From an uncultured Alphaproteobacteria bacterium (GTDB taxonomy: Bacteria > Pseudomonadota > Alphaproteobacteria > SMXQ01), in NCBI GenBank assembly GCA_963732875.1, contig CAVTBD010000002.1, positions 1,442,678-1,506,677 on the forward strand: 64,000 nt of DNA. The letters are read 5' to 3'. Positions 6,001 through 12,000 of this stretch are shown piece by piece. The first letter of the stretch is position 1, and every line of letters begins with the position of its first letter. The position numbers are program-made.

Positions 6001-9000
6001 CAATCCAACAAGGAGAAATACGGGCGAGCGGCAAGAGCCACGCCAAACGACATTAATAGCCTCCCGGAACCGCTGCGTCTTGAAAGCCCGCACGGCTCCC
6101 CGCGTCGCTTCCACGGCATGGAAACGGCCAAGTTCGCACCGCCGCTCCTTCGGCAGGTCGGGGCGGGCCAGCCAAGAATTCGGCCATGTCGAGATGATCG
6201 AGCGCGATTTTGAACCCGGTTGCGTCGTCTCCGCCTATGGTCGTTGATCCCAAATGGGAGCGGTAGAAGTAGGCAACACGCTCCAGACACACGTTACGCG
6301 CCCCGCCAACGATCATCCGCCATAGCAGATCGCGATCGTTGCAGGTGCGATAGGTCTGCTCGAAGATGCCGACCCGGTCAAACAGCGCGCGCCGATAGAA
6401 CCGGGCGCAGGCCATTAGCGGCCCCAGCAGCACGATGACATAGTCGAGATCGATCGCCGGACGCCGGTCAAAGGTACGCAGCACCTCGTCTCGGCCCGCG
6501 GCGTCGGTACTAAAGAATGCCGCCCCGGCCGAAACGATGTCACAAGCGGGGTCCGCCACGAAGGCAGCCGCAACATCGTGGAGGATTCCCGGTGCCAGCC
6601 GGTCGTCGCTCATGATCAGTCCGATGACATCGCCGGTGGCGCGCCGGATGCCTTCATTGATGGCCTCCTCCGGCGTCGAACCGGGCAAGTCGATGACGCG
6701 CAGGCCCGGAGACTCGGAAAGGATTTCACGGGTGCCGTCAGTGGAGCCGGCATCGACGACGATGTGCTCGATCTCGACGCCCTCTTGCCGGGCCACCGAA
6801 GCAAGGGCCTCGGCGATCAGGTCGGCACGGTTCAGCACCGTAGTGACCATCGAAACCTTCATCACTCCTCCGGGACGGCAGCCTCGGCTGCGATTCGACA
6901 AACGTTTTTCATTTTACCAGACGATGGTCCGGCGCAAGTCGACTGCGCCAGCATCGCCGTCAGCGACGGCAAGGCAGCGAGCTTTTGAACTAGAGCCAGA
7001 AAACCACGCGGTGACGCAGCCGGCCAATCGCGACGCCCGCCAGCACGCACAGCCCCAGGGTACAGCCTAGGACGACGGCCCAGTCAGCAGCAGAAGCGAC
7101 GGTACCAAGAAGCGGTGCCCGGACGATTTCAATGTAGTGGTACAAGGGATTGATATCGATGATCGCTGGCCTGCTGCTCATCGATGAAGGGTCCCAGAAC
7201 ACGGGCGTGAGGAAGAACAATACCTGCATGCCGCTACCTATGATCGGCGGGACGTCGCGAAACCGGGCAGACAACATCCCGAAGATAGTAGCGAGTGCCA
7301 CGCCACTTATGGCGTAGACTACGAGCGCGGGTATGAGCAAAAGAAACGACCACCCCAAGGGCCTTGGGAAACAAATCATCACAATCAGATAGATAACAAA
7401 ATTGTGGGCGAATATGATCAGTGTTTTCAGAGTCATATGAAACGCATGAAAGGTGATCGGCAGTCGAACTTCGCGTAATATGGGCGCGGCGTTGATGTAA
7501 ATATTACAGCCGTCAGTTACAATGCTGAGGATGAAGAACCACGCTAGGAAACCGGTCGTCAGATAAGGAAGGTACGATCCGGCCGAGACGTGAAACATCC
7601 TCGGATAGATCACGGCCATGACGAGGATGGTCATGCCCATGCCTGTCGTCAACCAGAAGGGGCCAAGAATTGTGCGGGTATAGCGGGAGCGAATATCATC
7701 CCAACTCAACGCTGCCCAACTCTGCCAAAGCCGAAAACTCTGGCACACATCGTGAGTAAACTGTCCAATGACTTCAGTATTTGTCACACGAATGGCCCTA
7801 CAGATATTTCGCTGTTTACACCGCGGTGAAAGATTCGGTACTTCATACCTGAGTCGGGAGCCGGCATCCACACTAAAGCCGCAGTGGGGCCCTTCCTGAC
7901 GCGGCCCTAACTACCAACCATCAATAGAACGCCCGAGCTGAAATGACACGCATTTCCGCGAACGATGTCTCGCTATTTTTCCCGATCTACGATCACCGCC
8001 GTCGCTCGCTCCGGCTGAGCCTCATGAAACGCCGGCTCGGCGGTGCGATTCAGCTCGATCCGCACAATCATATGTCGGTTCGCGGCCTGAAGAATGTCTC
8101 TTTTACTCTGGAACCCGGCGACCGCGTGGCGCTGATCGGTCCAAACGGCGCCGGCAAAAGCGTATTGCTGCGGACCCTTGCCGGAATTTACCAGCCGACG
8201 TTCGGACGCGTCACTGCGGAGGGAACAATCAACACCCTTTTCGATGTCAGCTTTGGCTTCGACCACGATTTGACCGGCCGGCAGAACCTCCGGCGGCGCT
8301 GTTACATCATGGGTCTTCGCCGACGAGAGATCGATGAAATGGTCGAATCAGTTTCGGACTATTCCGAACTCGGCCCGTACCTAGACATGCCAATGCGGGC
8401 CTATTCGGCAGGCATGGCGCTTCGGCTCGCCTTCACAATTTCGACGTCGATCCAACGCGATATACTCCTGATGGACGAATGGATCGGGGTGGGCGACGCA
8501 AGCTTCGTGCATAAGGCTCAGGAGCGTCTACTCAACCTGACCAAAAGCAGCCATATCGTAGTCCTGGCCTCCCATTCCGAGGAACTTTTGCGTAATATTT
8601 GCAATAAGGCCGTTCTTCTCTTTGCCGGAGAACTTGTCTCATTCGGCCCATTGGATGACGTGTTGAAGGACTACCACGAGAAAATCGCAGGTTGATGCCA
8701 TATGAAATTCAATATCGTGCTTGGCAACCACCCGGCCCACGGCATCAACACAACGCGCGACCATACCCTGATCATACGGGGTGGCCTGGAGGAGGCTGGT
8801 CACAATGCACGTCTGAGTTTCGACCAAGTGACGAACGATGAAATCAACATCTTTTATGACTATTTCGACGCTCAGTCCTCGGCCTATTTTCATACCCTGC
8901 GCGACTCCGGAATCCAGTACGGGCTGATTTGCACGGAAATCCTCGAAAATATGCGGATAAACGCCCGCGCCGCGGGCGCACGCATAGCGGCCTTAAGAGA

Positions 9001-12000
9001 GATAGGACAAAATGCGGAGTTCGTCTGGGTGATGCACGAGCCAAGCCTTGCGAACTATCGAGAACTCATCGGTCATGAAAAATGCCTGTACCTGCCGTTA
9101 GGCTATTCCGAAGCTATTCGCGAGCTTCGGATGCGTCCCTGGAGAGAGCGCCACATAGACTTTGTATTTTTCGGGTTGTTGACGCCGCATCGGATAAGAA
9201 TTCTTACGACACTAAAGCAAAGGGGTCACACGGTCGTTCATACCTATAACACCCCCGGATTCATCAGAAATTCCATTGTCGAAAACAGCAGGATCAATCT
9301 CGTGCTGAAGCAACATGACAAATGGCCTCAACCATCAGTCGGTCGCATTTGCTATCTTGTTTCCAACTGTGCGGTTGCGATGGCGGAACGAACATCACTT
9401 GGTGATCCTTATGAGAACTACCTGCACACCGCGGACTCGTCGAACTACGTTCAATCGTGCGAGAATCTGATCGGCATGGACGATGCGCCAATGCGCGCGG
9501 AAGAATTCAGAAGCAATTTCCGGAACGAACGTCCGATGCGGGAGATCATGAGTGGCCTGATAGATAATACATTTTCCGAATCGTGAAATACTATGCCCAG
9601 CGCCTTCTGTATTACCTGCTACGCCCCCGGCGTCTTGAGATCCGTGTTTTCGGTAATGAACGAATTCTGTTTTATAACCAAATCTTCCACATGAGTTACT
9701 ACAGGCAACGCCTTCTATATTACCTACGACACCCTCGGCATCTCGCGATCCGTCTCCTCGGTCAAGACCGAATTCTATTTTATGAGCACGTTTTCCATCG
9801 GGGACTGGATTATCTGTGCTCGCCGCGCCTGCTCTACCTCAGGGTAATAAAAGGACGCGAGTATCTTGCTTCCGAAATCGCGATCGGTAACGTTTCATTT
9901 CGCTTTTCAAACGCCGTCCCCGAGTGGTTTTCCAGGTCCTACGCGTTCCCACCGAACGAAATCGAATGCGCAGTCGCAAAAGCAACCGCGACTGAAAGGC
10001 TGGATATCGTGCAAGCCGTCGCGCTCTATCGCCAAGCCACGACGCAATACGATCAGGATAAATTCCGGATACACGAATGCATAGAACTCTTGGAGCAAGC
10101 GTTCTCGTACGCCGCGCTGCCGACAATTGGACAGAAGCTTGCCGACCTGAAGTTAGCGGTAGGTGACGCTGACGGGGCGTTGGCAACCTATCGACGCACC
10201 TTCGAAGAGTTCCCTGATTACGAACGTATCTGGTACTTCTATTTGATCTGCGCCCTGAGATATGCGGATAGCGAGACCAATATCACGCTGCTGAACGAAA
10301 TTCTTGCGCGGCAGCCTGACTATGCCCTGGCACTTTTTTTCAAGACCCTTTTCGAGCAGTTTCAGGCGCAGGTATCCAGCATCGAGGGCTCGATCGCCAA
10401 ATCGCGGGATCAAAGCCGACGCGGGCATGTAGTCGGTCTTGTGGCATGGGGGGGCCATTATGTCGATCTGGCGTGCCGATACACTCTATCTGCGCTAATG
10501 GCCGGAGGAAATCTCCCCGCCCTTTCCGAAAAGAAGGATGTCCACATCGTTTTCTTCACGGATGCCGCCGGAGCGGAGGCCTTGAAGCAAACACCGGTCT
10601 ATGAGGCCGTGTGTCGTCATTGCCGTTTCCATATAGTCGTGTATCCACAGGAACTATTGGAGCACTTCGAGAATCCGTCTTTCGAAGTCACATGCCACGT
10701 AAAATTCGGACTGATGTCGAATGCTTCGTACGCCTCGCTCGAAGCGTCGCGACGACTTGACTGCGATGCCACCATTATCTGCGGCGACAATCTGGTGAAT
10801 GATGCATTTCTTACGCAGTCGGACGAGCTCCTCGAGGCGGGCGCGCATTGCGTTTCAAGCGCCGGGTTCCGCCTACCCGTCGATAAAACTTTGGACTGGA
10901 TCGAGAAATTGCACCGCGGCGGCGATGGATTTTTGCGCATCACTGGCAATGACTTTGCGACAATTCTGCGGAAATTTTTACCTACGCAGTGTTTCGTCAA
11001 ATCTCGGGATTTTGCTCGTTTCCCGCTCTTCTTATGCTGGAAAGTCGAGGACGAAGGGGTCCTCGCCTACGCAAATCATTATCACCCACACACCTATCGC
11101 GCCCGATACCTGAAGCCCATTCCCGGCCCATCCATTGACCCTGTAGATGGCAGGTTTCTTTTACGCCATCTTGACGATATCGCCACTCTACACCCAGTGA
11201 ATAACCGGGATATTTGCCTATTTGATGTCGATACCAACCCACTCATCGTGCCGCCAAAACCGTTCCTGTCCAATCCGTTTTCCGAAAAAGAAGTCGCGTT
11301 CTGGCTGAGTTGTACCCTCGATCCCCTGCGCGAAATGTATTTTATGTGCCCCATCGAGATACCCGTGAAAACGCCGACGAAGCATTTATGGAGAATGCAG
11401 GAGTTGGCGGCCCAAGAAACGATCAAGCGAATATTAGCAGAGGCGACGTCACTGGAAAATCGCTACCGTCATCATGCCGCTTGGCTCGGCTGAGCCGATT
11501 CCTATAGGTTTAGAGATATCGAGGGAGATAATCGTGAGCCTAACCGGACCCGGACGATGGCCCCCAAGACTATCGTCCTGACAGGTGCGAGCTCCGGCAT
11601 CGGAGCCGCCCTGACCCCGGTGCTTGCCGCCGAGGGCCACCGGCTTTTCGTGTGCGCCCGGCGCGAAGACAAACTGAGGGAGGTTACGGATAACGGCCGC
11701 CTCGCACGGTATCTGCGCGTCAATGTCGGCGAGGAGGAGGACGTGCGAGCCTTTGCCCGGATGGTCGCCGACGACGTGGGGTACACCGATGCCCTCATCT
11801 GCTGCGCCGGGGCATATGGCGTAATCGGGCCCGCCCACCAAGTGGCGCCCGACAGCTGGTGGGCGGCCCTGCGTGCCAACCTCTTCGGCACATTCCTGAG
11901 CGTGCATCATTTCGTGCCCCTTTTGATGGGGCGCCCGGGTGCCCGGGTTATCGGGTTTTCCGGCGGCGGCGCTTTCAACCCTCTGCCCCGCTATAGCGCC

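Follow-up and report, generated by a model that had tools for sequence, protein, structure and literature searches.

What do two adjacent, AT-rich genes contribute to a surface-polysaccharide locus when they directly follow its ATP-binding cassette (ABC) exporter? The genes lie in a 64,000-nucleotide stretch of contig CAVTBD010000002.1 (assembly GCA_963732875.1) from an uncultured Alphaproteobacteria bacterium, here called the window, and encode proteins of 294 and 636 amino acids (aa), referred to as ORF1 and ORF2 after their open reading frames (ORFs). A preliminary description of the window had put them forward as candidate glycosyltransferases (GTs) or chain-regulating proteins. The first idea has gained ground: the predicted folds are GT-B for ORF1 and GT-A-like for ORF2, both proteins belong to unnamed families, and their gene order with the exporter Wzm/Wzt is conserved. 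Both proteins probably act in assembling the glycan exported by Wzm/Wzt. The suggestion of a novel fold has to be given up, since the AlphaFold2 (AF2) models correspond to the two classical GT folds.

A translationally coupled gene pair

The pair and its regions, with TPR standing for tetratricopeptide repeat and pLDDT for the predicted local distance difference test, are the following:

8702..9586, plus strand: ORF1, 294 aa from an ATG start; predicted compact GT-B (GT4-like) fold, rare unnamed family
9583..11493, plus strand: ORF2, 636 aa from GTG 9583; motif region, TPR and predicted GT-A-like domain
9583..9867, plus strand: basic N-terminal region of ORF2 (aa 1-95), rich in Tyr, Leu, Arg and Pro; two 36-aa tandem repeats and a third core motif
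9586-9693 and 9694-9801, plus strand: the 36-aa tandem repeats of ORF2, residues 2-37 and 38-73
9988..10404, plus strand: TPR-like helical domain of ORF2 (aa 136-274); seven helices, about 3.5 repeats, AF2 pLDDT >90
10411..11481, plus strand: predicted GT-A-like alpha/beta domain of ORF2 (aa 277-633), unclassified family

Both reading frames agree exactly with those first described, including the overlap of four nucleotides (GTGA, 9583-9586) shared by the stop codon of ORF1 and the start codon of ORF2. The pair does follow the ABC exporter, with a gap of 6 nt between wzt (7943-8695) and ORF1. No paralogues of ORF1 or ORF2 were found within the window, and a promoter and terminator scan of the interval from 7.7 to 12.7 kb gave counts equal to the shuffle expectation.

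The public NCBI protein (P0001) has 600 aa and begins at Met37 (ATG 9691) instead of GTG 9583. The GTG start is favoured, and the public start was probably called too short, because the third-position bias between the two repeats (see below) extends over repeat 1, upstream of Met37, because two related loci (L009 and L010) have ATGA overlaps at the equivalent junction, and because the homologues P0017, P0018, P0026 and the L010 protein all start with the same motif. In another related locus, L001, the called start at 3766 also appears too short: the upstream in-frame stretch (3598-3766) reads MGMYYLKRTIYYTLHPRQLRGRIG, an N-terminal copy of this motif, to which a motif model trained without it assigns 15.8 bits.

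ORF1 as a minimal GT-B protein

A word-indexed search of 5.8 billion proteins retrieved 15 relatives of ORF1, none of them functionally named. ORF1 has no match in Pfam or NCBIfam (E<=0.1), in PHROG or among PDB sequences, and the profile of the 15 sequences found no relative among PDB sequences at E<=10. The comparison by hhalign with the Glyco_trans_1_2 protein of locus L007 gave a probability of 2.7%, meaning no relationship.

The AF2 model of ORF1 (pLDDT 94; predicted TM-score, pTM, 0.90) has two Rossmann-like domains with an inter-domain cleft, the arrangement of a GT-B fold. The best Foldseek match in the PDB is BshA (3mbo; E 2.7e-8; query TM-score, TMq, 0.61), and further matches include MshA, PimA, TarM, Gtf3, a mycobacterial mannosyltransferase and 7qsg (E 1e-8 to 1e-6, TMq about 0.6). 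For BshA, MshA, PimA, TarM and Gtf3 the Foldseek probability is 1.0. The model resembles the GT4-type enzymes among them (BshA, MshA, PimA, TarM and Gtf3) in its two Rossmann-like halves and in a C-terminal helix that crosses back. However, ORF1 is shorter (294 aa against 330-500 aa), shares only 8-13% sequence identity with these enzymes and lacks a Glycos_transf_1 or Glyco_trans_1_4 signature.

It could be asked whether only one protein of the pair is catalytic. ORF1 would then be a non-enzymatic, GT-B-like adaptor or chaperone, as are GtfB and Asp1, that stabilizes ORF2, presents the acceptor or links ORF2 to Wzm/Wzt. The Foldseek matches of ORF1 do include the non-catalytic accessory secretion protein Asp1 (5vaf, 5vae and 6lnw), ORF1 lacks a Pfam GT signature and with its 294 aa is unusually small for a GT-B, and the tight translational coupling suggests a stoichiometric ORF1-ORF2 complex. 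However, the best fold matches are active GT4 enzymes, and 18 residues are invariant down to 22% identity, including D20, E79, D153, R164, R189, R215 and N222. Many of these residues are charged or polar, which fits an active site or a ligand pocket better than a scaffold, and a purely accessory ORF1 is considered unlikely.

A distant branch of the family (P0015, 32% identical to ORF1, in loci L004, L005, L017 and L018) is encoded between a DM13-domain gene and a 4HBT thioesterase gene on megabase-sized contigs. Since this branch has no glycan genes nearby, the fold family of ORF1 is not restricted to polysaccharide loci.

The basic repeat region of ORF2

The tandem repeats reported at the N-terminus of ORF2 are real, with a period of 36 aa and 22/36 identical residues (72% identity at the nucleotide level). 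The chance of such a match is about 5e-13 (binomial, local composition), and none of 200,000 shuffles reached 22 identities, the maximum being 13. The DNA of the two copies differs at 7, 7 and 16 sites in codon positions 1, 2 and 3, a third-position bias from which it follows that this frame is constrained as coding sequence in both of them. Residues 70-91 hold a further, degenerate version of the core, bringing to three the copies of [YF]-Y-L-x-[HR]-P-x-x-L-x-x-R-h in ORF2. Tandem Repeats Finder reported no DNA-level repeat; the repetition shows up only at the protein level and when the copies are aligned directly.

The region is strongly basic (isoelectric point, pI, 10.2; net charge about +12), with 14 Tyr within the first 125 residues, whereas the TPR part of ORF2 is acidic (pI 4.8). 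AF2 renders residues 1-125 as helices of low confidence, and no transmembrane segments were found in ORF1 or ORF2. The same motif stands at the N-termini of P0017, P0018, P0026 and the ORF2-type partners of L010 and L001, with two or three copies in several homologues, and is missing from some others, such as the one in L014. We infer that it may dock ORF2 to the anionic surface of the inner membrane or to a partner protein.

A short TPR domain and an unclassified GT-A-like domain

The TPR-like segment suspected in ORF2 is supported by the Pfam model TPR_14 (PF13428), which matches residues 184-220 above its threshold (E 2.5e-6; 28.1 bits against a cut-off of 23.5), and by the helix-turn-helix repeats of the middle domain, which identify it as a TPR protein domain. 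The ORF2 family profile also matches consensus-TPR structures in the PDB, and the Foldseek matches of ORF2 to TPR-bearing O-GlcNAc transferases are driven by the TPR.

The C-terminal region of about 350 aa had been left unassigned, and it indeed has no match in Pfam or NCBIfam, with no Pfam GT family at E<=0.1. Among PDB sequences, the full-length ORF2 family profile gave TPR matches only, and the profile of the C-terminal domain gave none at E<=10. A word-indexed search matched only ORF2 itself, so that the protein looked like an orphan; this was overturned by an exhaustive HMMER search, with 447 cluster representatives at E<=1e-3, 82 at E<=1e-10 and 24 at E<=1e-30. The part conserved across these relatives corresponds to residues ~280-630, and the domain may stand by itself (about 340 aa), follow TPRs or form part of proteins of 850-2,300 aa. 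No functional name is found among the 447 representatives, the source names of family members being only 'hypothetical', 'tetratricopeptide repeat protein' or evident mis-annotations. Pfam searches of 70 members and of 10 large multi-domain members detected TPR only and no GT family. The hhalign comparison of the domain profile with both GT2 proteins of the window gave a probability below 1%, that is, no relationship, and the domain family therefore cannot be filed under GT2.

The AF2 model of ORF2 (pLDDT 85 overall, >90 for residues 130-633) places an alpha/beta domain at residues 281-630 and ends in a single packed helix of 30 residues. The predicted domain is a single Rossmann-like alpha/beta/alpha unit with a mixed central sheet, as in the GT-A fold. 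Foldseek matches in the PDB represent five GT-A families: COLGALT1, BcsA, hyaluronan synthase (HAS), MGAT2 and AvpGT, the last being a bacterial nucleoside glucosyltransferase (PMC11959488). The modelled domain shares with such enzymes (GT2 BcsA and HAS, GT25 COLGALT1, GT16 MGAT2 and AvpGT) the alpha/beta/alpha architecture, and a conserved Asp lies directly after strand 4, the place of their DxD. It differs from them in lacking a canonical DxD, in a signature of its own (VWG after strand 1, GNLP, H-x-H-P and I-D-x-x-D-G) and in an extra C-terminal region of about 100 aa with a long helix at the end.

The near-invariant residues of the domain are W289, G290, N310, P312, D402, P502 and D522. 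W289 and G290 follow strand 1 directly, D402 follows strand 4 (residues 395-400) directly, and the later blocks are H-x-H-P (H499, H501 and P502) and I-D-x-x-D522-G. GT-A enzymes carry a DxD motif, which binds metal and nucleotide, after strand 4, and the positions of the near-invariant residues in the model fit those that a GT-A enzyme would need.

The same fold could serve another chemistry. Rather than working as a Leloir GT, the C-terminal domain might employ its nucleotide-diphospho-sugar-transferase fold to transfer sugar phosphates, polyol phosphates or nucleotidyl groups, or to modify glycans. A canonical DxD is lacking and the H-x-H-P block with two invariant Asp could equally form a phosphotransfer site; no sequence tie connects the domain with any CAZy-type Pfam family, and methyltransferases and enzymes that modify sugars abound in the loci. 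However, every named structural match outside the TPR is a GT-A-type GT (GT2, GT8, GT16, GT17 or GT25), with no nucleotidyltransferase of the same superfold among the top matches, which makes a different chemistry quite unlikely.

The top match in the viral structure library BFVD is a 342-aa uncharacterized protein that clearly has the same domain (E 1e-22; target TM-score, TMt, 0.81), and nearly all of the remaining matches are GT-A-type GTs. This protein (A0A6J5PWU5) is assigned to an 'uncultured Caudovirales phage' and corresponds in structure to nearly the whole C-terminal domain, at 18% identity. The domain family may also be phage-borne, or the viral contig may be misassigned.

Conservation of the pair in related loci

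Seven loci have close ORF1 homologues and enough downstream DNA to be compared. ORF1-like and ORF2-like genes are adjacent in six of them (the window, L001, L009, L010, L014 and L015); in L002/L003, by contrast, the ORF2-type domain belongs to a protein of 967 aa encoded two genes away from the ORF1 homologue. Wzm/Wzt genes stand directly upstream of the pair in the window, L001 and L009.

What is here called the unusual-sugar module also occurs next to the pair, or to homologues of it, in the window, L001 (6868-13614), L007 (13212-21038) and L010 (4245-8889). Across these loci the module comprises a short-chain dehydrogenase/reductase (SDR), the alpha and beta subunits of a thiamine diphosphate (ThDP)-dependent, pyruvate-dehydrogenase-like E1 component, often two DegT aminotransferases, a hypothetical protein of 400-470 aa and a radical S-adenosylmethionine (SAM)/SPASM protein. 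The 469-aa hypothetical protein of the window is conserved in the modules of L001, L007 and L010. A distant stand-alone member of the domain family, in L012, is encoded beside Wzm/Wzt, DegT, methyltransferase and radical SAM/SPASM genes.

ORF2-type proteins (TPR plus GT-A-like domain) number three in L009 (4360-7570, minus strand), two in L007 (7840-9543, minus strand) and one in the window. Several such paralogues per locus would be expected for linkage-specific transferases. A scan of the genome collection gave a single matching locus, in a metagenome-assembled genome of Ca. Odyssella. A different part of the window shares about 74% identity with Azospirillum chromids, as would fit an alphaproteobacterium.

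The glycan island

The other genes of the island, which extends to about 32 kb and also holds further methyltransferases, are listed here:

1181-3226, minus strand: class II aldolase-SDR fusion, island edge
3252-4520, minus strand: IF-2B/MtnA-like isomerase, island edge
4459-5841, minus strand: 460-aa hypothetical protein with no Pfam match, island edge
6053..6901, minus strand: canonical GT2 glycosyltransferase beside wzm (PF00535, E 4e-21)
6990..7871, minus strand: wzm, ABC-2 permease, divergent (PF01061, E 5e-11)
7943..8695, plus strand: wzt, short ATPase of 250 aa (PF00005)
11557..18136, plus strand: unusual-sugar module (SDR, ThDP E1 alpha, E1 beta, methyltransferase, 469-aa hypothetical protein, radical SAM/SPASM; Pfam and NCBIfam)
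15431-16840, within the unusual-sugar module: 469-aa conserved hypothetical protein with no Pfam match
20917-22470: HldE-like PfkB kinase and nucleotidyltransferase
22463-24522: two epimerase/dehydratases
24540-25253: transaldolase
25265-26459: two ORFs, at the place where L010 has HAD and SIS genes
26570..27481, minus strand: second canonical GT2 glycosyltransferase of the island (PF00535, E 1.7e-33)
28192-29424: nucleoside triphosphate (NTP)-transferase-HAD fusion

Besides the Pfam matches, the exporter genes have NCBIfam matches below the model cut-offs: Wzm/RfbD for wzm (E 6e-74; 248.9 bits against 380) and Wzt/RfbE for wzt (positions 4-242 of 244; 238.2 bits against 400). Since the 244-position model is matched end to end by a Wzt of 250 aa, the protein has no C-terminal glycan-binding module. 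The statement that no other GT candidates were visible needs correction, as two GT2 genes are present, at 6053-6901 and 26570-27481.

The preliminary description had called both genes of the pair AT-richer than any other in the window. This holds for ORF1, with a GC content of 0.511, and fails for ORF2, which at 0.525 is tied with the radical SAM gene; wzm is near, at 0.534. The window as a whole has a GC content of 0.639, its lowest 1-kb value being 0.500 at 9001-10000, and the block from 7 to 29 kb ranges from 0.50 to 0.60 against 0.62-0.75 elsewhere, with the island ending before ClpB (32388-34982). The pair is thus the extreme point of a low-GC island and not an isolated anomaly. Surface-polysaccharide loci are typically low in GC, and the composition of the island agrees with the locus having been acquired horizontally as a whole.

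A low GC content could also mark the two genes as horizontally acquired passengers, brought in by phages or mobile elements and without a part in the glycan, or as genes that are not expressed. They have the lowest GC in the window, the closest BFVD twin of the C-terminal domain carries a phage name, and a distant family member in L011 is flanked by transposases and an integrase. However, the entire 7-29 kb glycan island shares the low GC, synteny with Wzm/Wzt and the sugar module is kept across independent metagenomes, and the excess of third-position differences in the repeats shows that the reading frame is under purifying selection. Homology to phage or mobile elements, which would have spoken against a role in glycan synthesis, was searched for directly: neither protein has a PHROG match at E<=0.01 or a tblastn match in 72,556 plasmids, and a single uncharacterized Caudovirales phage protein shares the fold. 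Passenger status is thus highly improbable.

The unusual-sugar module resembles a biosynthetic route to a sugar with a branched or extended chain. As a side observation, the genes at 20917-29424 suggest a precursor derived from sedoheptulose 7-phosphate (heptose type), as in L010. The isomerase and class II aldolase at the island edge (1181-5841) resemble a 5-deoxyribose or methylthioribose salvage route, and it may be speculated that such a route would remove the 5'-deoxyadenosine which the radical SAM enzyme releases as a by-product. Bradyrhizose was considered as the product of the locus and dropped: the cluster of the relevant paper is based on a dTDP (deoxythymidine diphosphate)-glucose dehydratase, with no mention of Wzm/Wzt, transketolase or radical SAM. 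A literature search on O-antigen clusters with E1 and radical SAM genes yielded nothing useful.

A proposed two-subunit glycosyltransferase

The pair may be pictured as a two-subunit, membrane-peripheral glycosyltransferase of an ABC-transporter-dependent pathway, whose subunits would be kept in a fixed ratio by translational coupling. The two cytoplasmic, GT-fold proteins would act jointly on the inner face of the membrane, where they would build, and probably polymerize, the polysaccharide before its export by Wzm/Wzt. ORF1 would be a minimal GT-B (GT4-like) enzyme and ORF2 a TPR-scaffolded GT-A-like enzyme with a putative catalytic domain of an unclassified family. The basic N-terminal motif would hold ORF2 at the anionic surface of the membrane or attach it to a partner, and the short TPR may mediate oligomerization or partner binding, by analogy with TPR-bearing capsule polymerases such as Cps1B. 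Two-linkage polymerases of ABC-transporter-dependent pathways are usually pairs of a GT-B and a GT-A enzyme. The two ordinary GT2 enzymes would prime or decorate the chain. Because the pair travels with the SDR, ThDP E1 alpha/beta and radical SAM module, it is proposed to transfer or polymerize the unusual sugar of that module.

Several observations weigh against this proposal. No sequence-level link was found between ORF1 or ORF2 and any characterized GT in Pfam, NCBIfam, PDB profiles or hhalign. ORF1 is without the Pfam GT-B signature (Glycos_transf_1 / EX7E), its fold matches include GT-B-like proteins that are not catalytic (Asp1), and its distant relatives (P0015, 32% identity or less) occur in loci unrelated to glycans. 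Instead of the canonical DxD, ORF2 has G-D402-N and the wider family P-D (consensus P-D-x-x-x-x-D-G). Finally, the two GT2 enzymes at the locus could do the polymerizing.

A more far-reaching version is offered tentatively. The C-terminal domain of ORF2 might found a new GT-A-like family (VWG/GNLP/D/HxHP/IDxxDG) and form, with its minimal GT-B partner, a heteromeric polymerase dedicated to a rare sugar, branched or higher-carbon, from the adjacent ThDP-E1/radical-SAM module, and [YF]YLx[HR]PxxLxxR might be an undescribed element for docking to the membrane or to Wzm/Wzt.

Comparison with known systems

ORF2 may be compared with Cps1B, a group 2 capsule polymerase with GT-A, TagF-like and TPR modules (PMC5974469). 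The suggested analogy lies in a GT-A-type module combined with a TPR in a polymer-building, ABC-transporter-dependent system. In Cps1B the TPR mediates oligomerization and is dispensable for catalysis (PMC5974469). ORF2 differs in lacking a TagF-like (Glyphos_transf) domain in Pfam, with no TagF-type structure among its top 50 Foldseek matches, and in the length of its TPR, about 140 aa against about 400 aa in TPR capsule polymerases. Moreover, the second transferase of the pair would be a separate, coupled gene instead of a fused module, and the basic N-terminal repeat motif is an addition.

A second comparison concerns the enzymes that terminate chains in pathways of the same type, namely WbdD, WbbB and ORF7 of K. 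pneumoniae O4 (PMC11231755). Regulation of chain length or termination of the chain, in the manner of WbdD or WbbB, had been suggested as the role of the two proteins or of ORF2 by itself. The ABC-transporter-dependent pathway, the TPR-like bundle that ORF2 shares with the terminating enzyme ORF7 (PMC11231755) and the 30-residue helix at the end of ORF2 all speak for such a role. However, ORF2 has no extended coiled coil in the AF2 model that could act as a ruler, no kinase or methyltransferase domain in Pfam and no beta-Kdo (3-deoxy-D-manno-oct-2-ulosonic acid) transferase module. The PDB holds structures of WbdD and WbbB, and outside the TPR no PDB sequence matched ORF2 at E<=10. Several paralogous copies of the domain at one locus (three in L009, two in L007) are also unlike a single ruler, and the Wzt of the window lacks the C-terminal carbohydrate-binding module that accompanies terminator-capped systems. 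Given that coiled coil and kinase or methyltransferase domain are missing and that Wzt, at 250 aa, is too short to include a module for reading the cap, the pair is very improbable as a terminator or ruler. The system is accordingly grouped with ABC-transporter pathways of the uncapped type, the division into capped and uncapped types being established knowledge.

The folds, the pathway logic and the use of TPRs are already established, and the proposed transferase pair is not a new principle. New GT families have come repeatedly from loci for ABC-transporter-dependent glycans, GT99, GT102, GT103 and GT137 from Klebsiella being examples, and unnamed GT families are to be expected there (PMC11231755). 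What is new is the combination of a basic repeat motif, a short TPR and an unclassified, predicted GT-A-like domain, coupled to a minimal GT-B partner, together with the association of this domain family with unusual-sugar islands.

Significance for the protein family

An unnamed family of a few hundred sequence clusters gains a testable fold assignment and candidate catalytic residues. It also gains a conserved partner and a genomic niche, the unusual-sugar polysaccharide islands, known mostly from metagenomes. The domain family could receive a Pfam/InterPro model, and a CAZy entry if activity is shown, and the public annotation can be amended where its start codon is probably wrong. Furthermore, the pair offers a way of approaching the sugar that the adjacent SDR, E1 alpha-beta and radical SAM genes produce.

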